Made by a program: the position numbers and the translations under genes. A stretch of DNA of 64,000 bases from positions 341,496 to 405,495 of the forward strand of contig CAYUCS010000001.1 in assembly GCA_964443495.1 (NCBI GenBank), in the 5' to 3' direction. Shown here one piece after another: positions 3,253-50,081 of this stretch. The DNA comes from an uncultured Gammaproteobacteria bacterium (GTDB lineage Bacteria; Patescibacteriota; Patescibacteriia; Patescibacteriales; GWE2-39-37). The notes beneath the pieces were generated by a model. The model was not told the origin of the DNA and searched no databases. It worked only from the letters and a program-made list of their open reading frames with translations. Positions within the stretch are counted from its first letter, which is position 1. Each line of letters starts with the position of its first letter.

Positions 3253-3255
3253 AGT

Positions 3256-4218: not shown

Positions 4219-4221
4219 AGA

Positions 4222-5105: not shown

Positions 5106-5291
5106 TTAGCGCCGAGGCAGTAAAGGCGGCACTGTGCCTGGGTGCGATTTCGCCATTTTTTTTCTGGCGTCATTTTGGGGATCAGTGGTTCCCAATAGCA
5201 GATTCGATGCAATTTCCTTGATCGCTTCTTTTGAAAGTCCGATCACTTCCTGAGCAAAAAACTTTAATTGGCCGATGCTTGATTGTCTCAT
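5106..5291 (-). CDS. Small hypothetical protein (61 aa)
   Basis: GGAGGG Shine-Dalgarno 5 nt before the ATG; stem-loop plus T-run downstream on the minus strand (~5050-5080); no recognisable domain. Confidence 0.4.
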   Translation of the reverse strand: MRQSSIGQLKFFAQEVIGLSKEAIKEIASNLLLGTTDPQNDARKKMAKSHPGTVPPLLPRR

Positions 5292-5336
5292 GGTGCCCTC
5301 CAATGAGCATTTTTTACTAAAGTAACATTAATTTAT

Positions 5337-5369
5337 AAAAAAAACAAGCCCCGAAAGGGGCTTGTTTTG
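5337..5369. terminator. Bidirectional terminator downstream of rplA
   Basis: ACAAGCCCC-GAAA-GGGGCTTGT hairpin with A-run and T-run. Confidence 0.7.
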
Positions 5370-5386
5370 AGTATGTTCGGTGCGCT

Positions 5387-6082
5387 TTATAATGACACTT
5401 TGATGCCAGGGCCCATGGTCGAGCAGATGACCACGTTCTTGATGTAAGCGCCCTTGGCCTTAGCTGGCTTCAACTTCTTGATGATATCGACTACGGCCTG
5501 GAAATTCTCAGCCAACTTGGCAGTCTCGAAAGAGGTTTTGCCGATCGGCATGTGGATATTGGCGGTGTCGTCGTTCTTGAAGCTGATCTTGCCTTTCTTG
5601 ATTTCGGCGATCGCCTTGGCCGGGTCAGTGGTAACGGTCTCGTTCTTCGGTGAAGGCATCAGGCCGCGGGTACCAAGAATCTTGGCGATCGGGGCCAGGA
5701 AGCGCATCATTTCCGGAGTGGCGATGGCGACTTCGAAATCAGTCTTTTCAGTTTTCTTGATTTCTTCGATCAGCTCTTCGCCGCCGACAATGTCGGCGCC
5801 GGCTGCCTTGGCGTCAGCCTGCTTGTCAGCGCTGACGAAAGCGGCCACCTTGACGGTCTTGCCGATACCGTGAGGCAGGCTGACAGCGGAACGGATCTGC
5901 TGGTCGCCCTTCTTGGTGTCGATGCCGAGGCGCAAGTGGACCTCGATCGATGAATCGAACTTGGTGGCCGAGAATTTCTTAGCCATCTCGATGGCTTCAG
6001 CGATCGGATAGGCCTTGGCCTTGTCAAAATCGTAAGCCTTTTTCTTGGACTTTTTTACGGTCTTTTTGGTTGTCTCAGTCAT
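5387..6082 (-). CDS. rplA: 50S ribosomal protein L1
   Basis: YPIAEAIEMAKKF...IEVHLRLGID...QIRSAVSLPHGIGK pattern. Start uncertain: ATG at 6082 preferred, and the ORF also opens at a GTG at 6118. Confidence 0.9.
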   Translation of the reverse strand: MTETTKKTVKKSKKKAYDFDKAKAYPIAEAIEMAKKFSATKFDSSIEVHLRLGIDTKKGDQQIRSAVSLPHGIGKTVKVAAFVSADKQADAKAAGADIVGGEELIEEIKKTEKTDFEVAIATPEMMRFLAPIAKILGTRGLMPSPKNETVTTDPAKAIAEIKKGKISFKNDDTANIHMPIGKTSFETAKLAENFQAVVDIIKKLKPAKAKGAYIKNVVICSTMGPGIKVSL

Positions 6083-6133
6083 GCGTTTGTAGTGGTCTGC
6101 GTCCAATCGGACTCCCACGTTAATATTGAATGA

Positions 6134-6559
6134 TTAATCTTTGATTTCTACGCCCATCTGACGAGCGGTGCCGGCGATGGTCTTCATCGCGGCCTCGACG
6201 CTGGTGGTGTTCAGGTCCTGCAGCTTGATTTGCGCGATCTCGCGCAGCTGCGCGCTGGTCAGGGTGCCGACCTTCTCGATGTGGGCCTTCTTCGAACCGC
6301 TCTTGATGCCGGCGAACTTCTTGATCAATTCGCCTGCCGGAGGGGTTTTGGTGATGAAGGTGAAGGAGCGGTCGTCATAAACGGTGATCACTACCGGAGT
6401 GATTTCGCCCATGCGGTCCTTGGTTGCGTCGTTGAATTGCATGCAGAAGGCTTGGATCTGCACGCCGTGCTGGCCCAAAGCCGGACCGACTGGAGGTGCA
6501 GGATTGGCCTGGCCGGCAGGGATCTGCAATTTGATCTGTGCTAGTATTTTCTTAGCCAT
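6134..6559 (-). CDS. rplK: 50S ribosomal protein L11
   Basis: [33 protein letters not shown]... canonical L11 N-terminus. Confidence 0.95.
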
Positions 6560-6617
6560 AATTTTAATGATATTTACTTATATTCAATTGCTCCGAGAAG
6601 CGCAGAGCAACCAATGA

Positions 6618-7163
6618 TTAGATTTTCTTGATCTGCAAGAAGTCGAGTTCCAGCGGCGTTTCGCGGCCGAACATCGAGACCAATACTTTGACTTTGCCCT
6701 TGGCTTCATCGACTTGGGTGACCTTGCCTTCCAGGTTCTTGAACGGTCCATCGACGATCTTGACCGGGGAGTCGACCGTGACATCGATGGTGAATTTCGG
6801 TTCTTCAACGCCCATGCGTTTCTGCAGCTCTTTGACCTCCGTGTCGGAAATCGGGGTTGGGACGGTGCCGGTGCCGATGAAGCCGGTGACGTTCGGCGTG
6901 TTACGCACGACGTACCAGGAGTCATCGGTTACGATCATCTCGACCAAGACGTAGCCGGGGAAGATTTTCTCTTCCACGGTTTTACGTTTGCCGTTCTTGA
7001 TCTTGATCTTCTTCTCGATCGGAATCAGGATATTGAAAATTTTGTCCTCCATGTCCATCGACTCGGTTCTCTGACGCAAGCTCTGGGCGACGTTCTCTTC
7101 GTAGCCAGAGTAGGTGTGGATGACGTACCAGCGACGGCCTTGGTTTAAGACTTGTTTAGCCAT
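6618..7163 (-). CDS. nusG: Transcription termination/antitermination factor NusG
   Basis: RRWYVIHTYSGYE NGN domain and a C-terminal KOW (VKIVDGPFKNLEGKV); secE-nusG-rplK-rplA synteny. Confidence 0.9.
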   Translation of the reverse strand: MAKQVLNQGRRWYVIHTYSGYEENVAQSLRQRTESMDMEDKIFNILIPIEKKIKIKNGKRKTVEEKIFPGYVLVEMIVTDDSWYVVRNTPNVTGFIGTGTVPTPISDTEVKELQKRMGVEEPKFTIDVTVDSPVKIVDGPFKNLEGKVTQVDEAKGKVKVLVSMFGRETPLELDFLQIKKI

Positions 7164-7206
7164 AGATTTATATTTATAACTTCTCCTTGTTGTTGAGATA
7201 AAGCGG

Positions 7207-7401
7207 TTAGGCGCCTCGGCTGATCAAGAGGCTCAAGCCGGTGGTGAAAACCATGTCCAGCAGGTATAAAAAAACGGAAACAGCCAAGCTGACACCGATG
7301 ACCATGAGCGTGTAGTTGGTGGTTTCATTCTTTGTCGGCCAGGTGACTTTTCGGAGCTCCTCGACCGACTCTTTAAGATACGTGGTTAGGCGGTTTACCA
7401 T
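7207..7401 (-). CDS. secE: Preprotein translocase subunit SecE
   Basis: 64 aa; ELRKVTWPTKNET followed by a single TM helix; located upstream of nusG. Confidence 0.85.
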   Translation of the reverse strand: MVNRLTTYLKESVEELRKVTWPTKNETTNYTLMVIGVSLAVSVFLYLLDMVFTTGLSLLISRGA

Positions 7402-7503
7402 AATTTTGGTTTAAAAAACAGCCCTTGCGGGCGTTCCAATTAACTATGATTAGAATAACCGATTGGCGATAAAATGTCAAGGTTTGGGCGCTGGGCGTAA
7501 ATA

Positions 7504-7512
7504 TGTTATAAT
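7504..7512 (+). promoter_or_regulatory. Extended -10 promoter element TGTTATAAT
   Basis: TGnTATAAT 10 nt upstream of the 7522 start; the same 9-mer type recurs before several genes in the window. Confidence 0.4.
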
Positions 7513-7521
7513 TAAGCCACT

Positions 7522-7905
7522 ATGGATAACAACAACGTAGCGATTTACAGCTCCAAGATCATTGCCGATATCGTATGGGGGATTTTTTATTTTCCCTTGT
7601 GGTGGTATGGGGCTGGATTGCTCAAATTCATACTTACATTAGGTAAATTTATTGCCGAAAGGGAGCACGAAACCGGCTTTTTGGTCTGGCTCAAGAATAT
7701 CGGCAAGCCGATGTATGGGCAGAGCGACTTCGCCGGTGTCCTCATCAGTATCTTCATGCGGTTCATTCAGATTGTCGTCCGAGGCGTTATTATGCTTTTT
7801 TGGCTATTTTTAGCTATAATTTTTCTGGGTATTTGGATTTGTCTGCCAATCGTCACTCTTTACGAGATTTTTTATCAAATCATCCCTTCAGCTAATCATT
7901 TGTAA
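7522..7905 (+). CDS. Small integral membrane protein, unknown function
   Basis: 127 aa with 3-4 hydrophobic helices; stop lies 3 nt before the Clp-like gene start. Confidence 0.6.
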   Translation: MDNNNVAIYSSKIIADIVWGIFYFPLWWYGAGLLKFILTLGKFIAEREHETGFLVWLKNIGKPMYGQSDFAGVLISIFMRFIQIVVRGVIMLFWLFLAIIFLGIWICLPIVTLYEIFYQIIPSANHL

Positions 7906-7908
7906 ACA

Positions 7909-10641
<2,733 letters not shown>

Positions 10642-16435: not shown

Positions 16436-16508
16436 GCGCCCATAGCTCAGTTGGTAGAGCAGGTCCCTTTTAAGGACAAGGTCCAAGGTTCGAGTCCTTG
16501 TGGGCGCA
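16436..16508 (+). tRNA. tRNA-Lys(UUU): tRNA-Lys (anticodon UUU)
   Basis: Cloverleaf: GCGCCCA/TGGGCGC acceptor, GCTC/GAGC D stem, CTTTTAA anticodon loop, CAAGG-TTCGAGT-CCTTG T arm; no encoded CCA. Confidence 0.9.
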
Positions 16509-16510
16509 CA
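16489..16510 (+). repeat. Direct repeat copy 1 (the tRNA-Lys 3' end itself)
   Basis: TTCGAGTCCTTGTGGGCGCACA, identical to 16678-16699. Confidence 0.9.
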
Positions 16511-16549
16511 AATATAAAGCACCGGCCAATCGGCTGGTGCTTTATATTT
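16510..16549 (+). terminator. Long AT-flanked hairpin after tRNA-Lys
   Basis: AAATATAAAGCACCGGCC / GGCTGGTGCTTTATATTT ~18-bp stem with one G-U pair. Confidence 0.6.
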
Positions 16550-16663
16550 GTGCGTTCTCTAGGTAAAGCGAATTTTGCGGGAGGAGGGTGCTAAAATATA
16601 CAAAATAATTTCCAGTTATTAATTAATAAAATCAATAATAAATGACCACTTCTCATGAGAGAC

Positions 16664-16699
16664 GGGGCTTTCGCCCCTTCGAGTCCTTGTGGGCGCACA
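16664..16699 (+). repeat. GGGGCTTTCGCCCC hairpin plus direct repeat copy 2 (tRNA-Lys 3'-end fragment, att-like)
   Basis: Hairpin at 16664-16677 abuts the exact 22-nt copy of the tRNA 3' end at 16678-16699. Confidence 0.85.
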
Positions 16700-16779
16700 T
16701 CGCTTTTATTGATTATTCAGGGGCGCTGTGTTAAAACGAGAATAATCGTACATTCTATTTCAAGTTTAAGGAGGTTCGG

Positions 16780-17691
16780 ATGAAAAAGCTGATCAGAATC
16801 ATATTTGATGAAGTGATGGCCCGCATCCTGAATGCGCGCCGTTTCAACAACCCGTTCTGCTGGGTGCGGCTGCGTATGTGCCTGAGTTTTGCTAACCGGC
16901 TGGTCGACGAGAAGGATTGGTACATGATCAAGCTTTACAGCGGCATGCAGACGCCGCTCCTCGACGCCATCGAGTATCTGGCAAAGGTCGGGGACTACTC
17001 CTCGGTTCCGCGGCTTGAGACGCTGCTCCGGCACTACCTGAAGAAATCTGAAGAGGGCGGGCGGACAAGCGATTGGGGCGGCGGAGAAGTCACTTGCTTC
17101 TACGGCCCGATGGACTACATGCCTCAGTATGTGCAGACCGCGGCCATCCGGGCGCTGTTCGCCTTGATGGCTAAAGCCGATGCCGAGAATCTCGCCAAGG
17201 AACTTCTGGCGCAAGCCGAAACCAACGGCCTGTGCGAACGCTCGCTCGAAGAGGTGTCGGAATTCCTCGAACTCGGCTACATCGGCCGCGGCTTTTGGCG
17301 CGACGATGCCAGGTATCAGGCGCCGTTCAAGGTGCCGGAGGATTCTATCATGCTGCACCAGGGGTATCGTGGGCGTGCCGATGGCAGCTTTATCGAATAT
17401 TTCCTGGTGTATGCCAGTCAGGCTGACTACAAAGTCGACAAGACTGCCGACAACTCGGGTTTTTCCTGGATAACTGCAACCCTGGTATTGGGGGTCAGCG
17501 AATCCGAGAGCTGTAGCGTCAAGGTCAAGTATATAGTTCACGAGGATGGCGTCGGAGTCATTGATGGCCTGATTTTCGATCTTGAAGATATTTTCAACGA
17601 CAACTACCGTAAATTGAAGAAGTTGGAGCGTCTGTGGCTGAGATTCCGAGAAGGGATCCTGCCGGAGGCACGCCCCGAATTCGTTGCGTAA
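16780..17691 (+). CDS. Hypothetical protein with N-terminal HEAT-like repeat
   Basis: Strong AAGGAGG Shine-Dalgarno; LLDAIEYLAKVGDYSSVPRLETLL resembles a HEAT/PBS-lyase repeat; the rest is unknown. Confidence 0.6.
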   Translation: MKKLIRIIFDEVMARILNARRFNNPFCWVRLRMCLSFANRLVDEKDWYMIKLYSGMQTPLLDAIEYLAKVGDYSSVPRLETLLRHYLKKSEEGGRTSDWGGGEVTCFYGPMDYMPQYVQTAAIRALFALMAKADAENLAKELLAQAETNGLCERSLEEVSEFLELGYIGRGFWRDDARYQAPFKVPEDSIMLHQGYRGRADGSFIEYFLVYASQADYKVDKTADNSGFSWITATLVLGVSESESCSVKVKYIVHEDGVGVIDGLIFDLEDIFNDNYRKLKKLERLWLRFREGILPEARPEFVA

Positions 17692-17736
17692 ACAGCAGCT
17701 GCATCGATTTGCAAGTAACCGCCCCTTGAAAGAAAT

Positions 17737-17765
17737 AAGCCCCCTCAGGAAACAGAGGGGGCTTT
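17737..17765. terminator. Bidirectional terminator between convergent orphan genes
   Basis: AAGCCCCCTC / GAGGGGGCTT 10-bp stem. Confidence 0.6.
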
Positions 17766-17788
17766 AATATTGCTGGGCCAGCTAGGTT

Positions 17789-18340
17789 TTAGTCGAACCG
17801 TGCATGGCCGCACAAGAAAAAGGGCATCGGTGGCGGCGGATCGGCAGGTGGACGCCAACCGTCATGACAGTAGGTGCGCGGGATGATGAGGCTGCCTTGT
17901 TCAACTCTGGTTACGACAGAACAGGGGAAGGTCAGCCGGCTCATATCTCGGCCGCCGAAGCCCGTCATCTTTTCCCGTAGAACCATAAGGCAGATCAGCG
18001 ATTCCGGCGGATCAGTAGGCAGTGTTTTGAAATTCTGTCGGAACTCTGATTCGAGCAACTGCCAGGTCATGCCCAGGAAGATGGCTTGCCACTCCGATGG
18101 GTGGGAGTACTCGAATTCTTCGCAGGCCGGTTCAGTAATCGGGAAAAGGAGCGTTCTATCTCCTTCGGCGGCATGCCACAGCAAGGCGTGGGTCCTTGCT
18201 TCATTGACCTTGACTACGGTCAAGAAAGGCTCGTCCAGCTTCATCGCAGCAGCCCGGTATTCGGCCATCAGCGCGAATCTTTCTTCTTGGGTTTTGATAT
18301 CCCAAGGGTTTAAAGGATCAAACAAATCTTTCCAGTCCAT
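17789..18340 (-). CDS. Hypothetical protein
   Basis: AAGGAGG Shine-Dalgarno before the ATG at 18340 (MDWKDLFD...); 183 aa; no domain recognised. Confidence 0.55.
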   Translation of the reverse strand: MDWKDLFDPLNPWDIKTQEERFALMAEYRAAAMKLDEPFLTVVKVNEARTHALLWHAAEGDRTLLFPITEPACEEFEYSHPSEWQAIFLGMTWQLLESEFRQNFKTLPTDPPESLICLMVLREKMTGFGGRDMSRLTFPCSVVTRVEQGSLIIPRTYCHDGWRPPADPPPPMPFFLCGHARFD

Positions 18341-18449
18341 ATGAAAGGCCTCCTTGCGGGAAATTTGCGTAACTACCTTACTTATATGAATAAATGCCCA
18401 TGTTGTCAATTTGCGGCGGTTTTGGCGATTTGGCCCGCTCGAGGGTAGA

Positions 18450-18458
18450 TGATATAAT
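18450..18458 (+). promoter_or_regulatory. Extended -10 element TGATATAAT
   Basis: TGnTATAAT 28 nt upstream of the GH130-like start. Confidence 0.4.
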
Positions 18459-18486
18459 AATGATAACTAAGAAATAATCTCAGCTT

Positions 18487-19524
18487 ATGGTTAATGTCCA
18501 AAAATTAGGCCTAGTCCTGGAGCCGACCCAGAACTCGTTCGAAACCAGGGCGGTCTTGAATCCGGCAGTCTTCCAGGACGGCAATGATATCCATGTCATT
18601 TATCGCGCGATCGACGAGGGCTATATGTCGTGCCTCGGCTATGCCAGGCTGTCCGGCCCGACTACGGTGGTCGAACGGTGGAACAAGCCGTTCATGGTGC
18701 CGAAATTGAAGGCCGAAAGCAAGGGCATCGAGGATCCGCGCATCGTCAAGATCGACGGTACCTACTATATGACCTATGTGGCGCACGACGGCAAGAATGC
18801 CGTGACCTATTATGCTGACGGTCCGAGCCTGTTCGAGTTGAGCCGTTGCCATATGGTCAGCCCCAAGATTATGTACAAGGAGGCGGCCGAGATTTTCCGC
18901 TATCAGAAGTTGAAGGACGACTATTATTTCTACGAAGCTTTCTACAAGGAATTCAGCGGCAAGAATATCTTGATCTGGCACAAGGATTGCATCCTGTTCC
19001 CGGAAAAGATCGGCGGCCAATTCAAAATGCTTCAGCGTATCTTGCCGGATATCCAGATCATCGGCTTCGACGATTTCGGGCAGTTCAAGGAAAAATATTT
19101 CTGGATCCATTATCTTTTGGATGAGTTGGCGGAGAATGTGGTTCTCGAGAGCGAGTACACTTTCGAGGAGCGCAACGTCGGCGGCGGCTGCCCGCCGATC
19201 AAGACTCCTGACGGCTGGCTCATGATCTACCATGGCGTGCACGAGAATAATCAGACGCGGACATACAGCGCGGGCGCGGCCTTGCTTGATTTGGAAAATC
19301 CGGCCAAGCTGATCGCCAAGCTGCCATATCCTTTATTCTCGCCATCGAACGAAGCCGAGTCCAGCGGGCTGGTCAATAATGTGGTCTTTCCGACCGGCAC
19401 CGCCCAATTCGGCGACGACCTCTATATTTATTACGGCGCAGCTGATACCCGTATTGCCGTGGCCAAGGTCAGCATGGCCGAGCTCTTGGCCGAGCTTAAG
19501 GCCAATCCGGTCAAGAAGGTTTAA
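18487..19524 (+). CDS. Glycoside hydrolase family 130-like (beta-mannoside phosphorylase/glycosidase, 5-bladed propeller)
   Basis: VLNPAVFQDGNDIHVIYRA...IEDPRIVKIDGTYYMTYVAHDG...MIYHGV pattern. Confidence 0.6.
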   Translation: MVNVQKLGLVLEPTQNSFETRAVLNPAVFQDGNDIHVIYRAIDEGYMSCLGYARLSGPTTVVERWNKPFMVPKLKAESKGIEDPRIVKIDGTYYMTYVAHDGKNAVTYYADGPSLFELSRCHMVSPKIMYKEAAEIFRYQKLKDDYYFYEAFYKEFSGKNILIWHKDCILFPEKIGGQFKMLQRILPDIQIIGFDDFGQFKEKYFWIHYLLDELAENVVLESEYTFEERNVGGGCPPIKTPDGWLMIYHGVHENNQTRTYSAGAALLDLENPAKLIAKLPYPLFSPSNEAESSGLVNNVVFPTGTAQFGDDLYIYYGAADTRIAVAKVSMAELLAELKANPVKKV

Positions 19525-19553
19525 CAAGCGGCCATCGGCCGATAAGCGATAAT

Positions 19554-20768
19554 ATGATCTGTCCGAATTGCCAGCAACGATTCAACTATTTCAAGCAGGA
19601 TTTCAACAAGAAACGGAACGGAGAAAAAGGTTTTCCGTGTCCGCAGTGTGGAACTGGGCTCAGGCTTAGTGCGAACCTTGTGCGGCAGATAAAGGTGCTG
19701 CTGGCTATTTTCACGGCCATAATTTATGCCAGCTCATTTTTTCTGAGCAAGATAATCAAATGGCAAGATGTCTATGCAGTGATATACCCGTTGATCTTCG
19801 CGGTGTTTGTTTGCTTGTTTTATCGCGCCACTGAGTCGGCTACCGCCGAGGTTGCCATCAATAATCATGCCACTGCCGTCGCGCCTACTTCAAATAGCCA
19901 GCCGGCTACCGAGGTGCAAGCGGATGGTTTCAAGGTGAACCTGGGCCGCTCCGCCGCTCCATCGCCAATTCCTGGCGCCTATTCGGTGGTAATTTCCTTG
20001 GCGGCGGTTGCGATCTTGTTTTTCATCTTCATATCCGGTCTGTTCAAGAATCCGATGGCGCAACCTATAGTGAATCATGGCACTCCGACCAATGAAAAAG
20101 ATCCGGCCGGTTTATTGCGCGATTCCGACAGCGACGGTTTGCTTGATACGGAAGAAGGGATTGAATACGGTACAAGTCAAAAAGATGCGGATACTGACAA
20201 GGATGGCCTGACCGATTATGAAGAGATCAAGATCTACGGATCAGATCCTCTCAAAACCGACACCGATGCCGATGGACAGCCTGACGGCGTGGAGGCGACG
20301 GCAGGCAGCGACCCAGCCGGCGATGGAATGTTTAACCCTTTCGCCTCGCCGGAAACGACCCTGCATTACATGGAGCACGCGATTGCCAAGGGTAATTTGG
20401 ATGCTTATGAGTCGTCCTTCTATTATCCAGACTCATTCATTGAAGGATTTATTGGGCCGAATTTCGGGACTGACTTGCCAGGCTTCAAAAGACGATTCAA
20501 GAACAAGGTGTTTGCCGGCATGTCCAAGGATAACGTCGGAGCGGTGGTTATCTCAAAGCGCGAGGACGTCGACAAGGAGAATGTCGCGATAGAATATTAT
20601 CGTTTTACCATCGAGAACCGGAATCGGGGAATCGGCGATCAGGACAAGACTTATTTCAAGAAGATCGGCGACCGATGGCTGGTGGATATCGAGAAAGAAT
20701 TTACTGTGCTAAAGGAAACTAATCCCGAGAGGTGGCAGCTTAATGTGAAAGTATATTCGAACGAATAG
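19554..20768 (+). CDS. Membrane protein with N-terminal zinc ribbon and thrombospondin-type-3-like Ca-binding repeats
   Basis: CPNC...CPQC; TM helices; DSDSDGLLDTEE, DADTDKDGLTDYEE, DTDADGQPD repeats. Confidence 0.6.
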   Translation: MICPNCQQRFNYFKQDFNKKRNGEKGFPCPQCGTGLRLSANLVRQIKVLLAIFTAIIYASSFFLSKIIKWQDVYAVIYPLIFAVFVCLFYRATESATAEVAINNHATAVAPTSNSQPATEVQADGFKVNLGRSAAPSPIPGAYSVVISLAAVAILFFIFISGLFKNPMAQPIVNHGTPTNEKDPAGLLRDSDSDGLLDTEEGIEYGTSQKDADTDKDGLTDYEEIKIYGSDPLKTDTDADGQPDGVEATAGSDPAGDGMFNPFASPETTLHYMEHAIAKGNLDAYESSFYYPDSFIEGFIGPNFGTDLPGFKRRFKNKVFAGMSKDNVGAVVISKREDVDKENVAIEYYRFTIENRNRGIGDQDKTYFKKIGDRWLVDIEKEFTVLKETNPERWQLNVKVYSNE

Positions 20769-20789
20769 CTCGGGTTATGGCCATGTCTA

Positions 20790-20818
20790 TTGACAAAACA
20801 TGTTCTTCGTGCTATTAT
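20790..20818 (+). promoter_or_regulatory. Sigma-70-type promoter for the DEAD-box helicase gene
   Basis: TTGACA (20790-20795), 17-nt spacer, TATTAT (20813-20818). Confidence 0.55.
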
Positions 20819-20882
20819 TTCATTATCAATTAAATCAGATTCGAATCTCTCGTCTTTATCCGTGTTATACATAAAAGCATAG

Positions 20883-22139
20883 GTGGTCCCAGAGAAGTCG
20901 GATCACCTATTTTTTATGCAAGAACACAACTCTTCATCGGTAGTGCGTTTTAGCGATCTGGGCATCAGCACCAGCATTCTTAACGTGCTCCAAAAACTCA
21001 ACTTGGAAACGCCGACGCCGATCCAAGCCAAGGCGATTCCGTCGGCTCTCGACGGCAACGACCTGATCGGTATCGCCCAGACGGGAACCGGCAAGACTTT
21101 CGCCTTCGGCATCCCTATGTTGGAACGCATCGCCAAGACCAAGGGCAAAGGCTTGGTGCTTTTGCCGACCCGCGAGCTCGCGCTGCAAGTCGACGAGAAC
21201 CTTCAGAAAATCGGCAAAGAATTCGGCTTGCGCACCGCTTCATTGATCGGCGGCGAGCCGATCGGCAAGCAGATCAAGCAGATCCAAGCCAATCCGCACA
21301 TCATCATCGCCACTCCCGGGCGCTTGATCGACCATCTTAATAACCGCAAGACTATCAACCTGCGCAACGTGACCGTGCTCGTCTTGGACGAAGCGGACAT
21401 GATGTTCGACATGGGGTTCATTCCCCAGGTGGAAGAGATCTTGGGTCAGGTGCCGAAAGAGCGGCAGACCATGCTGTTCTCAGCCACCATGCCTTCAACG
21501 ATCGTGCGCTTGGTCAATAGGCACATGTCTTTGCCTTTGACCATCGAGGTCGCGCCGGCCGGCACCACCGCCGAGCGCGTGGACCAGGAAGTCTATGTCG
21601 TCAACAAGGAGGACCGTTTCAACCAGCTGACCAAGATGCTCGATGAATATACCGGTTCAGTCTTGATTTTTACCCGCACCAAGCACGGCGCCAAGGCGCT
21701 GACCAGGAATATCGGCAAACTCGGCTTCGGCGTGGCGGAAATCCATTCCAACCGCTCGTTCGAGCAGCGCAAGGCCGCTTTGGCCGGCTTCAAATCCGGC
21801 AAGTACCGCATCCTGGTGGCCACCGACATCGCCGCTCGCGGCATCGACGTCACCGGTATCGAGCTGGTGGTCAACTTCGACCTGCCTGATTCGACCGAAG
21901 ACTACGTCCATCGCATCGGCCGCACCGCGCGTGCCGGCAAGCAGGGCAAGGCTATCTCGTTCGCTTTGCCGACCCAGTGGAAGGATATCCGCGACATCGA
22001 GAAGCTGATCAAAAAAGATCTGGCTCTGAAAGAGTTCGCCCAGCTGATCAAGCCGGCAGCCCAGCCGAAGGCCTCGCTGTACGGCCGCATGGGCGGCGCC
22101 AGGCCGGTCGCTTTCCGCCGCGGCGGACGCCGGCGCTAG
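20883..22139 (+). CDS. DEAD-box ATP-dependent RNA helicase
   Basis: Q motif TPTPIQ, AQTGTGKT, VLDEADMMF (DEAD), SAT, HRIGRTARAG; start uncertain (GTG at 20883 or ATG at 20916). Confidence 0.9.
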   Translation: MVPEKSDHLFFMQEHNSSSVVRFSDLGISTSILNVLQKLNLETPTPIQAKAIPSALDGNDLIGIAQTGTGKTFAFGIPMLERIAKTKGKGLVLLPTRELALQVDENLQKIGKEFGLRTASLIGGEPIGKQIKQIQANPHIIIATPGRLIDHLNNRKTINLRNVTVLVLDEADMMFDMGFIPQVEEILGQVPKERQTMLFSATMPSTIVRLVNRHMSLPLTIEVAPAGTTAERVDQEVYVVNKEDRFNQLTKMLDEYTGSVLIFTRTKHGAKALTRNIGKLGFGVAEIHSNRSFEQRKAALAGFKSGKYRILVATDIAARGIDVTGIELVVNFDLPDSTEDYVHRIGRTARAGKQGKAISFALPTQWKDIRDIEKLIKKDLALKEFAQLIKPAAQPKASLYGRMGGARPVAFRRGGRRR

Positions 22140-22196
22140 GCTTGCCTAGTCTGGGAAAATATCTTATTATAAGAACATTGTTTTTCTTATAATATT

Positions 22197-22269
22197 GCCA
22201 GCTTAGCTCAGTTGGTAGAGCAGCAGTTTTGTAAACTGCGGGTCATGGGTTCGAGCCCCTTAGCTGGCT
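22197..22269 (+). tRNA. tRNA-Thr(UGU): tRNA-Thr (anticodon UGU)
   Basis: GCCAGCT/AGCTGGC acceptor, GCAGT-TTTGTAA-ACTGC anticodon arm, TTCGAGC T loop (one T-T mismatch in the T stem). Confidence 0.85.
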
Positions 22270-28310: not shown

Positions 28311-29561
28311 TTAAATTTTAAAAAAAATATCATTCAAATTATCCTCAGAAAAAGATGCATCATCTTTAATCCAAAACTTTATTGAATCTCGAAGAAATCC
28401 TTCTATCTTTATTATATCATCATTAGTTAATCCGTGTTTATTTCCATGCACTATTTTACTTCTGGTTGCATACATTTTTTTAATAAAATCAAATATTTCT
28501 TTTCTATGATCTTGATCTCCCAAAAGAAAAGCCACGCGCATTGATAATCTAAATGTTAATTCGTCATTTCCATTTGGTAAATATAGTGATTCAAGACCTA
28601 TCATATAGTCAATCAATTTATCTTCAATATTTCTTCGTTCCATGCCAAGACTCAATCTTCTCATGGCTATATTAAATCTAGTATCTTTTTCTTTCGTAAT
28701 GAACTGGTAAATATCAGAAAGTTCTTCAATTTCTGATTTTACAAGTACGCACTTTTCCCCTATAACTATATTTTCAAACCAGGAACCAATGGTTGTAATG
28801 CCGCCGTGAGGATGGAATGTTTCCATTTCTGAATTAATTCTATGATCCCTGTAAACTCCCGAAGATTTTAATATTCTAAGTGCGCTTATCACTCTATCAA
28901 AAATGTCACTTGATATGTTTAATTCATCCTCACCAGGAATAGCAAGTGGCTCTTCTGGCTCAGATGGCACTCCAGATTTAATAATTTTAGCGGTTTCATA
29001 CTTTCTTTGAATAATATATGATGATTTTGAAAAATTAGCATATCCTCCCTCAAAGTCATAATCAGGCTCTGATAAACTAACAACTTTAGTTTTTATTACA
29101 ATTCCGTCACTCAGATCAATCTCAGCCTCTTCATATTGAAAGTTGTACAGTGCGGTTGAGTCAATAAATTGCAGCTTTTCAGAATAAAATAACTCTTCAA
29201 AGCTCAAATATGCCTGATTGAATATGTCTAATGAAAATTCAGCATTTTTAAAATAAAAGCTTCTCAAGAAACTCAAAAGACACGATTCGGAATTTCCAGT
29301 GGTTGTAAAACCTCGGCAAGTTCCAACAAGATTGCCAAGTAAGCCGTTAATTTCTGGAGCAACTTTCATTATTTCCTCACATTCACTAAATTCTGGTATT
29401 TTTTTAATCTCATTATCAAAATTTATTAATAATCTAATTACATAATATTTTTCACTCATGCGTTGCGGATCTAACTTTAAATTCCGACCATAAAAAGAAA
29501 GTGCTGACTCAGTTAGCACTTGAAGGTTGATATACAATTCCTTGTTGTGTATTTGTTCCAT
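28311..29561 (-). CDS. HEPN-domain protein (C-terminal Rx4H RNase-type motif) with an unknown N-terminal region
   Basis: C-terminal helices RFNIAMRRLSLGMER, LIDYMIGLESLY, LTFRLSMRVAFLLG, KKMYATRSKIVHG (R367..H372, nt 28446-28463); very AT-rich. Confidence 0.6.
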   Translation of the reverse strand: MEQIHNKELYINLQVLTESALSFYGRNLKLDPQRMSEKYYVIRLLINFDNEIKKIPEFSECEEIMKVAPEINGLLGNLVGTCRGFTTTGNSESCLLSFLRSFYFKNAEFSLDIFNQAYLSFEELFYSEKLQFIDSTALYNFQYEEAEIDLSDGIVIKTKVVSLSEPDYDFEGGYANFSKSSYIIQRKYETAKIIKSGVPSEPEEPLAIPGEDELNISSDIFDRVISALRILKSSGVYRDHRINSEMETFHPHGGITTIGSWFENIVIGEKCVLVKSEIEELSDIYQFITKEKDTRFNIAMRRLSLGMERRNIEDKLIDYMIGLESLYLPNGNDELTFRLSMRVAFLLGDQDHRKEIFDFIKKMYATRSKIVHGNKHGLTNDDIIKIEGFLRDSIKFWIKDDASFSEDNLNDIFFKI

Positions 29562-29819: not shown

Positions 29820-30058
29820 ATGAAATTGGAAGAGTTATTGCGAAAAATTGAAAACGAGCTAAGGCTGAGAAATTTTAGCCGACGTACTATCAAAAGCTAT
29901 GTGGCTTGCCTCTCTGAGTATTTGAGGTGCGTCTAGGGGATAAATGCCGATAAGGGCGCTATGTACAAGAATCGTTAGGGCATGCTAATATCAGAACTGC
30001 TCAGATTTATACCAAAGTGACGAGTCCGATGCTGAAAAGCATCGCAAGCTCGTTGTGA
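29820..30058 (+). pseudogene. Tyrosine recombinase/integrase remnant (N- and C-terminal fragments, catalytic core deleted)
   Basis: 29820-29936 encodes MKLEELLRKIENELRLRNFSRRTIKSYVACLSEYLRCV*. 29975-30058 encodes LGHANIRTAQIYTKVTSPMLKSIASSL*. Confidence 0.7.
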
Positions 30059-30062
30059 AAAT

Positions 30063-30443
30063 ATGACCAGGGAAGATTTTGAACAATTGGTCGAGGAGGC
30101 GTTGGCGCTGATGCCGCAAGAATTCTTGGACAAGCTCGACAACGTTGCGCTGGTCATCGAGGACCATGCGAGCAAGGAGCAGCGCCGGCAAGCGCGCTTG
30201 TCCGGCAATCAGGTGCTGTTCGGGCTGTATGAAGGCATCCCTCTGGTCCAGCGCGGCGCCGGTTATGGCAATGTGTTGCCGGACAAGATCACGATATTCC
30301 AAAAGGCCATCGAAGCCAGCTGCACCACTAGGGAAGAAGTGCGCTTGAAAGTGCGGGACACGGTCTGGCACGAGATCGCCCACCACTTCGGCTCTGACGA
30401 ATCCGGCGCGCGGCAGGCCGGCAAGAAAGCGAATAAGTTATGA
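30063..30443 (+). CDS. Small zinc metallopeptidase-family protein (DUF1025/zincin-like)
   Basis: WHEIAHHFG HExxH motif; 126 aa. Confidence 0.7.
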   Translation: MTREDFEQLVEEALALMPQEFLDKLDNVALVIEDHASKEQRRQARLSGNQVLFGLYEGIPLVQRGAGYGNVLPDKITIFQKAIEASCTTREEVRLKVRDTVWHEIAHHFGSDESGARQAGKKANKL

Positions 30444-43148: not shown

Positions 43149-43219
43149 TCGGGGATCGTCTAATGGTAGGACAGCGGGTTCTGGTCCCGTCAATTGGGGT
43201 TCGAGTCCCTATCCCCGAG
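43149..43219 (+). tRNA. tRNA-Gln(CUG): tRNA-Gln (anticodon CUG)
   Basis: TCGGGGA/TCCCCGA acceptor (U1-A72), GCGGG-TTCTGGT-CCCGT anticodon arm, TGGGG-TTCGAGT-CCCTA T arm. Confidence 0.85.
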
Positions 43220-43227
43220 CAAATAAA
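43203..43227 (+). repeat. Direct repeat copy 1 (tRNA-Gln 3' end plus 8 nt)
   Basis: GAGTCCCTATCCCCGAGCAAATAAA, identical to 43319-43343. Confidence 0.9.
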
Positions 43228-43299
43228 ATCAGTCCCTTTTGGGGCTGATTTTATTTTGTTTGTGGGATAGGGCCGAAAGAAAGTCAATGCGTGAGGCGT

Positions 43300-43343
43300 G
43301 GGGCTTCCGCCCCGGTGAGAGTCCCTATCCCCGAGCAAATAAA
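43300..43343 (+). repeat. GGGGCTTCCGCCCC hairpin plus direct repeat copy 2 (tRNA-Gln 3'-end fragment, att-like)
   Basis: Hairpin at 43300-43313, then GGTGA, then an exact 25-nt copy of the tRNA-Gln 3' end at 43319-43343. Confidence 0.85.
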
Positions 43344-43385
43344 TAAAGAGCACCTCCTCAAGAGGCGCTCTTTATTTATTTTTTT

Positions 43386-43425
43386 AGGAATGGGACTCGA
43401 ACCCGCCTACCGGCAGGCAGGCGGG
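43386..43425 (-). other. Third tRNA 3'-half-like fragment (different tRNA) behind a GC hairpin, inverted orientation
   Basis: Minus strand reads CCCGCCT-loop-AGGCGGG then TTCGAGTCCCATTCCT; no matching 5' acceptor strand upstream. Confidence 0.6.
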
Positions 43426-43501
43426 CAGCAGTGAAAAAAATTTGCACAGCACACTTTATTTATTAAAAAGAAACCCGCGCTTGGCTGGCGCGGGGCTGAA
43501 T

Positions 43502-43948
43502 TTATGGGGCGATAGAGAAAAGTTCGGCTGGCGCGTCGGCAATAACGCATTGGGCGATACCCGACCAGCCACCCCTGGCTTCGTATTCACCAATCCAGAT
43601 CTCACCTTTGCGCTCGAAAGAAAATCGAATTTCGTTAGACTTGGCTATCGTTTCATAGACAGACGAATCCAGTGCTTTCGAATACATTTTTTTGAAATAT
43701 AGCTCATCTGGCAAAAGCCTGATGTTGGACAAGATCGACAAGCCAAGGCGGTCAATCATGTATCCAGGCACCTCAAGCTCATCAAGTTGCTCGGGCGGTT
43801 CCGTTGAAATTATACCGGAAAACATGATTCTACAGTAATCTTTCTTTATGAGCATCGCGGGTGTGGAAGCAATGCCCAGGCTGTGGCGTTGATCGTCGGT
43901 GAAATCGGTTGATTTTTGAAAAAAGAACCCTTGGATGATTTTTTTCAT
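43502..43948 (-). CDS. Hypothetical protein (148 aa)
   Basis: GGAGGTG Shine-Dalgarno upstream of the ATG; no domain recognised. Confidence 0.5.
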   Translation of the reverse strand: MKKIIQGFFFQKSTDFTDDQRHSLGIASTPAMLIKKDYCRIMFSGIISTEPPEQLDELEVPGYMIDRLGLSILSNIRLLPDELYFKKMYSKALDSSVYETIAKSNEIRFSFERKGEIWIGEYEARGGWSGIAQCVIADAPAELFSIAP

Positions 43949-44138
43949 CTTTGCACCTCCGTTGTTGTATTCAAGATTTATTCAGATGTTAGTCAATTTT
44001 TATATTTATGTCAATTTACTTAACTAATTTATTGTGCTGGCCGAGGAGCGTGAATATGATTGACTGCGGGAGTAAAATATGTTTGAATATGTAATCTGCT
44101 CATTTCATTAAAAATAAACCAACTCAGGAGGTGGAAGG

Positions 44139-45329
44139 ATGAAAATAGATACTTCGAGACGGCTTGAACAGGCTTTGGCGCTTTGGGAGAACTTGAATTA
44201 CTACTATCGTGTCGTGGCCGAAAGGTGCATCGCGGTCAAGCAGAGCCATCGTTTCCCGATGGAAGAGATGTACAAGAACAGCGATAAGCTGAGAAAAGTC
44301 TTGCTCGGAAGCTATTCCTCGAATCCGTCTGATCGTTTCGACTTTTCGGATTTTAGCGGAAGCACGGAAAAGAGCATGCACCTTTTCGGGAATCTCGGAC
44401 TTTTGCCGCTGTATCTGCATCACTGGACGGTCTCATCGAGGCGCGTCTATCATCTGTCACAGAATCTCCAAACCCTGCTTCGATGGACATCGCTTGATAA
44501 TGTGCGTTGGAGCGATATCGAGTGGCCGTTCAACTCCTTTGTCGTCTCTCTTGAGACGCCCATCGTTGACACCAATGGCGATAAATTCGATTGCATGCTG
44601 TTCACAAAAATTGATGCGATCGACGAAGGAGTTGTCAGGATGTCGGACATCTCGATCACTCTTTTTTCTTCGAGATTAGAGGGTCTTGAAACTTTCACCA
44701 GTGTCCAGCGGCAGAATCTGCAGCGGGCGTATAACGAGTGCAAGGCAAAAAAGGTCAAGAAGATGATGAGCGTCATTGACAGTCTTCAGCCCGGGCCGCA
44801 TGCGACTCGACCGGTAAGGATGTATTACTTCGACGCCATGAAAAATCGCGATATGCTCGTATCCGAAAGTGCCGAAGTGCTTAATGAGCGGCTCGTAAAA
44901 GAGCACCAGCTTGGCAGCTATGACGTTTTCGATGCTGCCCTTAACATCGTTGCCGGTCTGGCCCTTTATCTTGGCTCGCAGGATGCGGACAGCGAAGAGC
45001 GGACCGAGTGGCGCCGTGCCTCTGTTCCTGGCGAACGGAATCATCGGCACATCAACAACACTGCCCAGGTCTGCGAAGTCTTTTGCACGAAAAGCCTTAC
45101 CATCAGGGATCAGGAGTTTATCTCGGCAATCAATCGCCAGTTGGAGATAAGCGGACGCATGGGCATGCCGGTGCATTGGCGGTGCGGCTATTGGAGACGG
45201 CCGCCAGGAATGGGTTGCATTCCGATGGCCAAAAGATCGGTCCGCGTCAGCCCGAGCCTGGTCAACTCCGATCTCATTGATGAGTTTACGGACAAGGGCT
45301 TGCCGGTCGGCTCATGCCACAGGATTTGA
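44139..45329 (+). CDS. Hypothetical protein (396 aa), first gene of an orphan operon
   Basis: CAGGAGGTGGAAGG Shine-Dalgarno; basic C-terminal block PVHWRCGYWRRPPGMG; no domain recognised. Confidence 0.6.
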   Translation: MKIDTSRRLEQALALWENLNYYYRVVAERCIAVKQSHRFPMEEMYKNSDKLRKVLLGSYSSNPSDRFDFSDFSGSTEKSMHLFGNLGLLPLYLHHWTVSSRRVYHLSQNLQTLLRWTSLDNVRWSDIEWPFNSFVVSLETPIVDTNGDKFDCMLFTKIDAIDEGVVRMSDISITLFSSRLEGLETFTSVQRQNLQRAYNECKAKKVKKMMSVIDSLQPGPHATRPVRMYYFDAMKNRDMLVSESAEVLNERLVKEHQLGSYDVFDAALNIVAGLALYLGSQDADSEERTEWRRASVPGERNHRHINNTAQVCEVFCTKSLTIRDQEFISAINRQLEISGRMGMPVHWRCGYWRRPPGMGCIPMAKRSVRVSPSLVNSDLIDEFTDKGLPVGSCHRI

Positions 45330-45370
45330 GCGTGCTCCACGCAAGCCAACGCACAAAGGAGGTAGTTAAG

Positions 45371-45637
45371 ATGGAACAGCCATTCAATTTGACGTCGTCT
45401 GAATTCAGCCCCGCTGGCAAGGTGGTTGGCCACCTGTATTATCACGGCATCCTGAAATGCTTGCTGCACGATGATGAATATTCCGGTTCGCCTAGCGAGG
45501 GCGGTTCGCATTTCCTGCGCCTACACGTCAGCCGAGCGGACCTGGAAGCTTTTCTCGACCTCATCGAGGAATATTATGCGGCCGCTGGCGAACGTTTTGC
45601 CGGCGGCGTAGCTGCCTTGCGCCAGAAAGTCGCGTGA
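45371..45637 (+). CDS. Hypothetical protein (88 aa)
   Basis: AAAGGAGGTAG Shine-Dalgarno 7 nt before the ATG at 45371. Confidence 0.55.
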   Translation: MEQPFNLTSSEFSPAGKVVGHLYYHGILKCLLHDDEYSGSPSEGGSHFLRLHVSRADLEAFLDLIEEYYAAAGERFAGGVAALRQKVA

Positions 45638-45700
45638 TATCCGTTCACGTCAAATAAACGCCCCCCGATTATTGAATCGGGGGCAAGGAGGAGGCAGGAC

Positions 45701-48678: not shown

Positions 48679-49602
48679 ATGGAAAAGGCATTGCAGGTCT
48701 TCAGAACGGCTTTGGGGTTGAAGCATAGGAACCTGATAAGACGCTGGCGCTGGCTGGAACGGAATTATCATCCGGAACATGACGAGGAAATCAGGTCGAT
48801 CCTGGAGGAATTAAAAGCGGTATCGCTTACTTTGAGGAATGAGGTCGGGTGGTCGTACATCGACGACCTGTCGACGTTCATGAACCTGCAAATCAGGCAC
48901 AAGATGGACGACCTCAAGGCTCGAGTCATGAATCTCGTTGATCCGCCTGGCCAGGCCGCAGTTTCGAAACTGGTGTCGGAAATAAGGCAATTGATCGCCG
49001 CGTCCAGCGAAGAGCTCAAGCAGTATAAAGGCGGCTCCAACTGCCTCGACGCCAAGGACTATGAGATGAAAATTTCATTGCTTGAGTCGATTTCAAAGAA
49101 GCCGCTGACTAGCGGCGAAGTCCGTGCCGTAGTCGACGATTATGAATCTTCGCAGGGCTACATGATCCATAACTTCGAAGAAGAAGGGGGCGATCCGATC
49201 GTCGAATGCATCCCGTTGCCTAAAGAGCCTGACGAGGATGACATCTTAGGCCAGCACGGCATAGTAATGGGGTTCCGTGTCGGCTATATGGCGATGGGCA
49301 GCTGGATATTTCCGATCGTCGAAACCGAGGATGACCGTATCGGCATACCGATCGAGAAATTGCTTGCCGAATTCGGCGGCTGTCCCAGGGGACGCGTAAA
49401 TGACATGGAAAAAAGGCAGAATGATGGTTACGATATGTACCGCAAGCGGTGCAGCTGTTGCCTGAGGCACGTCTGCCCGGGCGGAGATTTGTATTTCGCC
49501 TGGAACCTGAAAGCGTTGGCGGCGAAATTTTTACGGGTCAAAAACCGATCGCAAGAGTCAATCAGGGCCTTGCTGGATTTCAGCGGCTATCAAGCTTCCT
49601 AA
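48679..49602 (+). CDS. Hypothetical protein (307 aa) with a weak J-domain-like N-terminus and a C-terminal Cys cluster
   Basis: GGGAGGGTG Shine-Dalgarno; LIRRWRWLERNYHPEHDEE (HPE where a J domain has HPD); RKRCSCCLRHVCPGG. Confidence 0.55.
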   Translation: MEKALQVFRTALGLKHRNLIRRWRWLERNYHPEHDEEIRSILEELKAVSLTLRNEVGWSYIDDLSTFMNLQIRHKMDDLKARVMNLVDPPGQAAVSKLVSEIRQLIAASSEELKQYKGGSNCLDAKDYEMKISLLESISKKPLTSGEVRAVVDDYESSQGYMIHNFEEEGGDPIVECIPLPKEPDEDDILGQHGIVMGFRVGYMAMGSWIFPIVETEDDRIGIPIEKLLAEFGGCPRGRVNDMEKRQNDGYDMYRKRCSCCLRHVCPGGDLYFAWNLKALAAKFLRVKNRSQESIRALLDFSGYQAS

Positions 49603-49613
49603 GGAGGGAAAAA

Positions 49614-50081
49614 GTGATCGATATCAAGGGGAATATCAAGGGGGTCGAGGGCGACCCGTCGAATTTCAGGTTGCGCCGTTTCAGGTTCCGCGGAGTCGAG
49701 TGCGAGTGCATGGAGTCATTACTGCAGGCTTTTAAGTTCGAAAACCGGGAAGTGCAGCAGTTCATCTGCCAGCTTCGACCGCGCATCGCCAAGCTTATCG
49801 GGACAGAGCGAAACCAGGTCTGGCAAGCCTCCTTGACCTTGTGGTGGGACGACCAGCCTTATCATCGGTTATCGCCGGAGTATCAGGAACTGTTGGACGA
49901 GGCTTATGAAGCACTGTCCCTGAACCAGGACTTCGTCAACGCTTTGCTCGCGACCGGCGATGAAATGCTGACCCACAGCATCGGCGAAAGGGATCCGACC
50001 AGGACCGTCTTGACCGAGGAGGAGTTCTGCTCGCGCCTAATGAAAATCAGGCGCATCAAACAAGGGAGGGAAGCATGCTGA
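49614..50081 (+). CDS. NADAR (YbiA/DUF1768)-like protein, tentative
   Basis: AAGGAGGG Shine-Dalgarno plus GTG start; PSNF...FRGVECECMESLLQAFKF...ALLATGDEMLTHS mirrors the NADAR blocks LSNF / SxEHxxQAxKF / LLxTGxxxLxE. Confidence 0.45.
   Translation: MIDIKGNIKGVEGDPSNFRLRRFRFRGVECECMESLLQAFKFENREVQQFICQLRPRIAKLIGTERNQVWQASLTLWWDDQPYHRLSPEYQELLDEAYEALSLNQDFVNALLATGDEMLTHSIGERDPTRTVLTEEEFCSRLMKIRRIKQGREAC

Follow-up and report, generated by a model that had tools for sequence, protein, structure and literature searches.

Background

Transfer RNA (tRNA) genes are classic docking sites for genomic islands, and the scars that such islands leave in them are usually regarded as passive. Among the closest described systems, the T-loop-class integrase of mycobacteriophage Ms6 has an attachment (att) core of 26 nt, and changes in this core retarget the element to other tRNAs (PMC1762012), while Islander islands display a regenerated tRNA gene together with a displaced fragment of it (PMC4383910). 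Cis-mobilizable elements (CIMEs), for whose definition we follow PMC5704250, are kilobase-scale decay products of integrative and conjugative or integrative and mobilizable elements (ICEs/IMEs). Here we analyze the tRNA-Gln(CUG) locus in a 64,000-nt stretch of contig CAYUCS010000001.1 (assembly GCA_964443495.1), hereafter the window, to which all coordinates refer unless another contig is named. The 3' end of this tRNA gene is duplicated behind a GC-rich hairpin, and we present the locus as one member of a family of miniature, gene-less, tRNA-3'-end-duplicating modules in Candidatus (Ca.) Falkowbacteria. This family was previously unlisted, and we found no description of mini-modules duplicating tRNA 3' ends in the searchable literature.

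As at the T-loop attachment sites of tyrosine integrases, such as those of Ms6 and the Islander islands, the module repeat corresponds to the segment from the tRNA T-loop to the 3' end, with the tRNA regenerated and the displaced fragment placed at the far end; a repeat of 25-30 nt starting at the T-loop is present in the window and likewise at ~45 loci. Unlike those elements, the modules (~115-190 bp in size, with 91-170 bp between the repeats) have no integrase or any other open reading frame (ORF), a single module architecture serves at least 20 tRNA species, and a GC hairpin abuts the junction in place of an inverted core half-site. What sets them apart from known tRNA-targeting elements is their size of 115-190 bp, the complete lack of genes, the uniformity of their architecture and the lineage-wide occupancy. 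With CIMEs, tandem accretions and tycheposon remnants they share att sites (attL/attR) retained without recombination genes, as is seen at the window module, and the distal position of the older units; as in CIMEs and tycheposon islands, an incoming island may use the displaced att copy (contig L185, below). However, no descent from a full-length ICE or IME parent could be traced, and unlike CIMEs the modules are uniform, tiny, organized in families and present at about half of the tRNA genes of the lineage.

A further likeness is to miniature inverted-repeat transposable elements (MITEs), repetitive extragenic palindromes and bacterial interspersed mosaic elements (REP/BIME), and the Correia and RUP (repeat unit of pneumococcus) elements, which are similarly small, non-coding, multi-copy and hairpin-forming, and often supply terminators. 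Unlike these, the modules have neither terminal inverted repeats nor a short target-site duplication: their ends, an A-rich terminator start and a GC hairpin, are not inverted repeats, and the flanking repeat measures 22-30 nt. They are also strictly confined to one kind of target, with a target-derived repeat of 22-25 nt that differs from locus to locus. Finally, the acceptor-plus-T-stem helix predicted to form beside a T-loop from the inverted and displaced tRNA copies (B' and A2, below) recalls mascRNA/MALAT1, the plant t-elements and the minihelices processed by RNase P/Z; unlike these, the module has no cloverleaf and matches no tRNA or mascRNA model.

Anatomy of the tRNA-Gln locus

The tRNA-Gln(CUG) gene occupies 43149-43220 on the plus strand, as do all parts described in this section (ARAGORN; 55.6 bits against the Rfam tRNA model). 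Its T-loop-to-3'-end segment constitutes the first repeat copy, A (43198-43227; repeat family D1), and is followed by an intrinsic terminator (43221-43256; terminator scan, inverted pair I3), whose 16-bp stem lies between an A-tract and a T-tract and shows compensatory changes in the related contig L002. Sixteen pairs and a T-run directly 3' of the tRNA make this a regular intrinsic terminator, as in nearly all units of the family. Next along the strand is B' (43255-43272), an imperfect inverted copy of the T-stem 3' strand and acceptor 3' strand (TTTGTTTGTGGGATAGGG), recognized by RNAfold, by local alignment to the perfect complement (score 21) and by the cognate test given below. A 27-nt linker (43273-43299), delimited by reading the sequence and by alignment with other units, ends in GCGTGAGGCGT, a pre-hairpin motif of the CGGNGT type, and leads to the conserved GC hairpin GGGGCTTCCGCCCC (43300-43313), the right end of what we term a type A module, which is invariant in the window, L002 and L179. 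Directly 3' of the hairpin lies the second repeat copy, A2 (43314-43343), a direct copy of the tRNA-Gln T-loop-to-3'-end with the variant loop GGTGAGAGTCC, which emerged from the repeat search and tracks its tRNA in L004 and L086.

The duplication reported in the initial annotation is exact: the 25-mer GAGTCCCTATCCCCGAGCAAATAAA, comprising the last 17 nt of tRNA-Gln plus 8 nt, occurs precisely twice, at 43203 and 43319, 116 nt apart, and the repeat lengthens to 30 nt at 93% identity (43198-43227 versus 43314-43343). A third copy, which could have marked a distal att site, is absent from the 64-kb window with up to 3 mismatches allowed (shuffled sequences also gave 0). The 91 nt between the repeat copies contain no ORF, and only 43149-43220 is called as a tRNA by ARAGORN and Rfam RF00005, nothing tRNA-like being found in 43255-43430 even at E<=10. 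B' has alternative pairings, with A, whereby it lengthens the terminator stem, or with A2; the B'-A2 helix amounts to 17 bp enclosing the hairpin (z = -3.96 with RNAfold in the window).

Beyond A2, a terminator-like hairpin with a T-run (43337-43386; inverted pair I1), which diverges rapidly between relatives, opens a second module. It belongs to a long hairpin with arms at 43324-43356 and 43362-43394, such that each repeat copy does have its own terminator hairpin, as had been proposed. It is followed by B2' (43384-43404; inverted pair I2), which repeats the T-arm and 3' end of tRNA-Gln imperfectly in inverted orientation and is conserved in L002 and L179, and by the start of a truncated type C module (43402-43434; inverted pair I10, three-way alignment), made up of a second GC hairpin (43402-43425) and GGGCAGCAGTGA. 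An opposite-strand fragment and hairpin are present here (43387-43404 and 43402-43425), but their attribution to some other tRNA has to be abandoned: the fragment is 89% complementary to 43197-43214, the T-loop/3' region of tRNA-Gln itself, and is therefore an inverted copy of the same tRNA. What looked like three separate tRNA-end relics are parts of one complete and one truncated module, of a conserved family that stands behind at least 20 tRNA species.

The hairpin was also rightly said to be common to tRNA-Gln and tRNA-Lys, since GGGGCTTYCGCCCC occurs in the window only at 43300 and at 16664 (expected number 0.12). The tRNA-Lys(UUU) gene (16436-16510, plus strand; T-loop-to-3'-end segment 16489-16510) is followed by a type A module of the long class (16510-16699, plus strand), consisting of a terminator (16510-16549), B' (16549-16563), an AT-rich spacer, the hairpin (16664-16677) and, directly 3' of it, A2 (16678-16699), an exact 22-nt copy of 16489-16510. 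The parts are those of the tRNA-Gln module, and the AT-rich spacer is longer.

A family of modules behind many tRNA genes

A scan of metagenome contigs (given below by their L numbers) for the hairpin followed by a GARTC pattern returned 57 instances in which the hairpin directly precedes TTCGARTC or GTGAGARTC. In ~45 of these, what follows the hairpin reproduces the T-loop, T-stem 3' strand, acceptor 3' strand and discriminator of a tRNA gene situated 71-154 nt upstream (in tandem arrays, as far as ~330 nt); most of the other hits either run into the end of a contig or match unrelated sequence by chance. These ~45 loci cover 13 isotypes and at least 20 anticodons, and their spacers fall into a short class of 71-84 nt and a long class of 128-154 nt. 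Those contigs that could be named belong to Ca. Falkowbacteria, Parcubacteria or Patescibacteria. When occupancy is scored as an exact 13-mer copy of the tRNA 3' end at most 700 nt downstream, with the hairpin not required, 38 of the 83 tRNAs in these contigs (~46%) have a downstream partial copy, as do two of the three in the window. A patatin scan of genome contigs, whose over-general peptide patterns matched unrelated phyla, supplied a control set as well as contig L005; for the 28 control tRNAs from other phyla, the sole downstream copies were complete tandem tRNA-Gln genes in Acinetobacter. Among the IMG/VR viral sequences, 0 of 27 matches to the hairpin pattern are followed by a tRNA 3' end. 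Likewise, the module segment matches no Rfam family and no tRNA or mascRNA model, permissive thresholds yielding only spurious miRNA-like hairpins.

Conservation at the dnaX-tRNA-Gln locus

Homologues of the patatin encoded upstream of tRNA-Gln place the organism of the window in Ca. Falkowbacteria, and the upstream order T4SS (type IV secretion system)-like ATPase, response regulator, dnaX, patatin, tRNA-Gln is kept in L002, L004 and L086; L179 spans dnaX, patatin and tRNA-Gln only. The first module is common to the window, to L001 (an independent Logan assembly of the same strain), to L002 (NCBI; 89% at the amino acid level) and to L179 (JGI; 93%). The shared arrangement shows that it is no assembly artefact, and the fragments, far from being absent elsewhere, are widespread. 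Its non-tRNA part has 7 substitutions in 119 columns among the window, L002 and L179, with 0 in the hairpin and the A2 core, whereas the adjoining terminator 2 is substituted at 21 of 47 columns (45%). Synteny of L002 and L179 with the window stops at 43402-43434, in the truncated second module.

More distant relatives have differently built modules at the same place. In L004 (69% at the amino acid level) A2 follows that contig's own T-loop and T-stem changes, with GAATCTCTA in place of GAGTCCCTA; the module of L086 (62%) is a long one, whose hairpin is identical and whose A2 matches that contig's own T-stem CCAGG; L205, in which tRNA-Gln directly follows dnaX, has a short module; and L005 (49%) has none at this locus. 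A single dnaX(-patatin)-tRNA-Gln locus is hence occupied, depending on the lineage, by a type A module of the short or the long class, by a type B module or by none.

In L086, three tandem mini-hairpins (TTTTTCGGGG, 5 nt, CCCCGAGA; 8290-8388) lie directly upstream of tRNA-Gln, each fusing the first 6-7 nt of the tRNA to its last 7-8 nt and thus constituting an acceptor-stem-only copy; one such mini-hairpin is also seen in L085. The ends of the Logan contigs L003, L085, L087 and L088 do not reflect strain variation: they break 25-30 nt into tRNA-Gln, in the 5' half common to tRNA-Gln(CUG) and tRNA-Gln(UUG), and are accordingly repeat-induced.

Module types and tandem arrays

At least three module types exist, at times in tandem, and related contigs differ by whole modules. 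Type A is defined by the hairpin family of GGGGCTTCCGCCCC. Type B has the right end AGTTTATGCCCCGRAGCGNNAGCGTAGGGGTAAATC and is found at tRNA-Gln (L004), tRNA-Lys (L158) and tRNA-Ala (L203). Type C is a GC-rich structured segment of ~190 nt with the right end GGTGAGGCGNAAKTC, which forms the second module of L179 and L002, and a type C-like end is also present at tRNA-Gly in L118. In L179 the type C module runs on to a third direct tRNA-Gln copy, A3, whereas the window version stops after GGGCAGCAGTGA. Tandem arrays of mixed type occur in L158, L183, L203 and L126, and the degraded copies tend to be the distal ones (L183, L203 and the second module of the window). Contigs L171 and L158 have near-identical flanks, with L158 containing two added modules exactly between the repeat copies.

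Some units have a composite appearance. The tRNA-Ile and tRNA-Gly modules of L135 share an identical 45-nt right part behind unrelated terminators. In L141 and L213, the A2 acceptor strand CCGGCCC mismatches the TCCACCC of the upstream tRNA-Tyr, which B' does match; to judge from the sequence, this suggests chimeras joined at the hairpin/T-loop by recombination between modules of different tRNA loci. In the second units of L126 and L144 the hairpin variants GGGGTTTAACCCA and GGGGTGTAAAACCCT have their closing C-G pair replaced by T-A, possibly a compensatory change. In L203 (reverse strand, ~3710-3360) the 5' acceptor strand of tRNA-Ala is swapped for T-rich sequence, with the result that ARAGORN makes no call; a type B module comes next, succeeded by one of type A with internal deletions in its A2.

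Recombinase-bearing islands at the same tRNA genes

Genuine islands also occupy some of these tRNAs. L202 is distinguished from L155 by 7.4 kb of inserted DNA, an element that encodes a large serine recombinase, sits at the extreme 3' end of tRNA-Gln(UUG) and pushes a pre-existing module downstream; L202 is the sole hairpin hit with its cognate tRNA kilobases away, the element having been inserted later between the tRNA and the existing module. In L185, a homologous large serine recombinase gene abuts A2 and the hairpin rather than the tRNA, and the complement of A2 and the hairpin supplies its final codons (WLGDRDSKGRKPRAS); hence, we infer that the displaced copy is able to serve as an attachment site. 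The two recombinase ORFs (L202, 540-2141; L185, reverse strand, 1296-2930) end in the C-terminal tails WLGRRDS... and WLGDRDS..., for which the tRNA-Gln 3' end, read on its complementary strand, is the coding sequence, indicating that the ORF spans the attachment junction. L234 (reverse strand, 721-8260) harbors a canonical 7.2-kb tyrosine-integrase element in tRNA-Lys(CUU), which duplicates tRNA nt 5-76 and lacks the type A hairpin; its displaced copy retains the CCA, together with a terminator, an inverted copy and one more partial copy, the right end of which differs (type D). The comparison of these three islands with the modules indicates that the latter are not simply the islands' ends. 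A jackhmmer search over all loci detected recombinases only in L085, L185, L202 and L234.

The nature of the modules

The block of identity from the T-loop to the tRNA end, the regenerated tRNA with its displaced fragment, the tandem accretion, the presence or absence of whole modules between relatives and the variation in type at one orthologous locus, features with ample precedent in integrative elements that target tRNAs, together lead us to favor gene-less modules inserted site-specifically in the tRNA T-loop as the best account of the locus and the family, one to which we give about an even chance of being right. Under this proposal, each module would be the product of a site-specific insertion with its junction in the universally conserved T-loop. 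The left end of the inserted DNA would supply a replacement T-loop-to-3'-end together with an intrinsic terminator, so that the tRNA would stay functional, and the former 3' end, A2, would be shifted downstream to lie directly after the right-end hairpin of the module. As the modules encode nothing, the recombinase would have to act in trans. Repeated insertions would stack modules in tandem, with the newest beside the tRNA and the distal ones decaying, and as the displaced ends would still be usable as attachment sites, variable gene blocks could build up beyond them. The architecture, the family with its tRNA specificity, the tandem arrays, the differences by whole modules between relatives and the serine-recombinase island at A2 are observed, and the direction of insertion, the crossover in the T-loop and the trans-acting enzyme are inferred.

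Several observations weigh against this proposal. We saw neither an empty-site nor a circular-junction allele for the window's own module, no recombinase linked to the modules was identified, and the window ORFs tested (11.1-19.5, 27.6-33.4, 36.6-51.7 and 54.9-63.0 kb) contain no integrase domain. The difference between L171 and L158 could alternatively have originated by unequal crossing-over between the 22-nt repeats, and simple copy-paste explains the pattern in L135 less well than gene conversion or modular assembly would. Nor does the proposal say by what route a module with no ORF obtains the fitting 3' end, and an inverted copy to match, for at least 20 different tRNAs. Further, insertion does not account for module 1 being as conserved as coding DNA while the adjacent terminator 2 diverges, a contrast between neighboring sequences that suggests host-level constraint. 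The last two points keep alive the alternative that the host maintains the element, be it as a minihelix-mimic RNA of the tRNA acceptor/T-arm (for instance, RNase P/Z punctuation or a decoy for tRNA-binding factors), or with A2 as a spare or decoy att site by which integrating elements would be drawn off from the functional tRNA gene.

We regard this alternative as possible but on balance unlikely. It is consistent with the folding of B' and A2 of the short class into a helix of 12-18 bp enclosing the hairpin, as in the window, and with the roughly tRNA-like size of the B'-to-A2 segment (76-80 nt). It also accommodates the cognate specificity of B' (in 19 of 39 units its score exceeds the 95th percentile of those for non-cognate pairings), the pairing of the pre-hairpin motif CGG with the T-loop UCG in 11 of 13 units, the coding-like conservation of module 1 beside the 45% substituted terminator, the occupancy of nearly half of the tRNA genes and the use of A2 instead of the tRNA by the large serine recombinase island of L185. 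Conversely, the segment is unmatched by any Rfam family or tRNA model, and RNAalifold finds 0 compensatory changes, since the hairpin, by which the loci were selected, is invariant for that reason. Long units have no conserved promoter position, and a strong terminator precedes the segment; the module type varies between orthologous loci, some of which have no module; a single function is difficult to reconcile with mixed-type arrays of 2-3 units; and distal copies visibly decay. A more specific version, which strikes us as doubtful, is that Ca. Falkowbacteria keep a hairpin-capped spare T-loop-to-3'-end at about half of their tRNA genes under host selection, as a decoy or landing-pad att site that would spare the essential single-copy tRNA genes from incoming islands, or as a top-half mimic RNA; the spare copy would be renewed by a dedicated T-loop-specific recombination or copying process that matches each module to its tRNA automatically. 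The view of the initial annotation, broadly that the copies are scars of large decayed islands or prophages (attL/attR, CIME-like) with the hairpin as the end of one island family, appears improbable to us. Partial tRNA copies as scars and tandem accretion are well documented (tycheposon preprint; PMC5704250), genes past the array are variable, and real islands sit at these tRNAs in L202, L185 and L234. Yet, ~45 of the 57 hits have the cognate tRNA within 71-154 nt (to ~330 nt in arrays), with kilobases in between only in L202 and there through a later serine-recombinase insertion; the discrete size classes and the conserved internal architecture are unlike the outcome of random deletion; the tyrosine-integrase element of L234 duplicates nt 5-76 without the hairpin; and none of the 27 IMG/VR hairpin matches precedes a tRNA 3' end. 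Neither the 57 hits nor IMG/VR yielded a full-length element with the hairpin at its end, and the L234 and L202 elements have other ends. The least probable is a local by-product of replication, neither mobile nor functional, through palindrome extension or template switching at the terminator hairpin: the direct-inverted-direct-inverted order of A, B', A2 and B2', with pairs centered on the terminators, and the homologous terminators after A and A2 in L144, L133 and L126 conform to it, but it accounts neither for the recurrence, at more than 20 tRNAs in many genomes, of one and the same non-tRNA hairpin with its pre-hairpin motif nor for the second conserved module type (B).

A number of other ideas were dropped. 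An origin from cDNA with a primer-binding site, prompted by the CCA in A2 of L002, L004 and L086, is not borne out, as CCA is not enriched: it is found in 10 of 49 A2 copies versus 14 of 44 tRNA genes without a unit, and those of the window have CAA and CAT instead. The AT-rich spacer of long units has no fixed -10-like signal of a promoter (at most 5 of 24 units at any offset), and promoter scans of the window gave nothing convincing. The G-U bias of B' is not a decisive sign of RNA-level selection, being mostly T-enrichment that arises because B' overlaps the U-tract of the terminator. A stem-loop with a GAGAA loop and a cognate T-stem is a subfamily trait rather than one of the whole family, given that just 9 of 39 units match it strictly. 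Hammerhead and other small ribozymes, integron attC sites, IS200/IS605, IS110 bridge RNA, IS91/Helitron elements and casposon/CRISPR-like duplication were set aside by anatomy only, in that none explains the locus-specific repeat of 22-25 nt along with the conserved hairpin.

In this tiny-genome lineage with single-copy tRNA genes, a uniform gene-less module is found at about half of the tRNA genes; in every case the tRNA is regenerated, a terminator is supplied and a spare att-like copy stays behind. If mobile, the modules would represent an unusually small class of site-specific elements that uses the universal T-loop and self-matches to any tRNA, and hence a candidate for an insertion system that can be retargeted; if maintained by the host, they would constitute a new means of protecting essential tRNA genes or of organizing gene flux. 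In practical terms, they account for repeat-induced contig breaks and spurious partial tRNA calls in metagenome-assembled genomes of Patescibacteria and serve as exact border markers of flexible regions.

Variable genes beyond the modules

The tRNA-Gln array is followed by a strain-variable block (43435-45700) with ORFs at 43502-43948 (minus strand), 44139-45329 (plus) and 45314-45637 (plus). Alignment with relatives supports the suspicion that the orphan genes directly after the array are variable: 43502-45637 has no counterpart in L002, nor any tblastn match in L004 or L086. From 45701 onward, L002 (89% identical) is again homologous, over the genes for CSD, glyoxalase, FMN reductase, Phage_30_3 and RNase T. 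Where the window has the three near-orphan ORFs, L002 has the remainder of the type C module, an ORF of 103 aa and a Phage_30_3 paralogue, all missing from the window. The second orphan block that had been linked to the tRNA, at 48.7-50.7 kb, does not belong here: the ORF at 48.7-49.6 kb is a separate indel that does not adjoin the tRNA. The notion of an integration hotspot is accordingly upheld in part, by the variable gene content past the array and by the recombinase islands at tRNA-Gln or its copy in L202 and L185; on the other side, no distal repeat copy bounds the orphan block in the window, and an integrase is missing from the window ORFs tested.

Scans of the three variable-block ORFs with Pfam, PHROGs and PADLOC gave no match. 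The 396-aa ORF (44139-45329) has only four homologue clusters among 5.8 billion proteins; a precomputed annotation assigns PF26125, an AcrVA2-like, anti-CRISPR-related family, to it and to two of the four homologues, while our own hmmscan gave no match. Its homologues (L236-L238) are not adjacent to tRNAs. With regard to the NADAR-like Phage_30_3 genes, the two paralogues of L002 (11788-12390 and 14700-15368) flank the glyoxalase/FMN-reductase pair, and the single one of the window is at 49449-50081.

Two other regions of the window deserve mention. Between 28000 and 30000 the GC content is 33% versus ~52% elsewhere, and the ORFs at 28311-29561 (minus strand, 416 aa) and 29991-30386 (minus strand, 131 aa) have no Pfam match; by its composition, this segment may be foreign DNA. 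In L201, tRNA-Thr lies only 40 nt past the A2 of the tRNA-Lys module. In the window, the same module is separated from tRNA-Thr by 5.5 kb (16700-22197) with genes for a 303-aa protein, a 206-aa protein, a GH130 protein and others, which looks like a second variable block bounded by a module.

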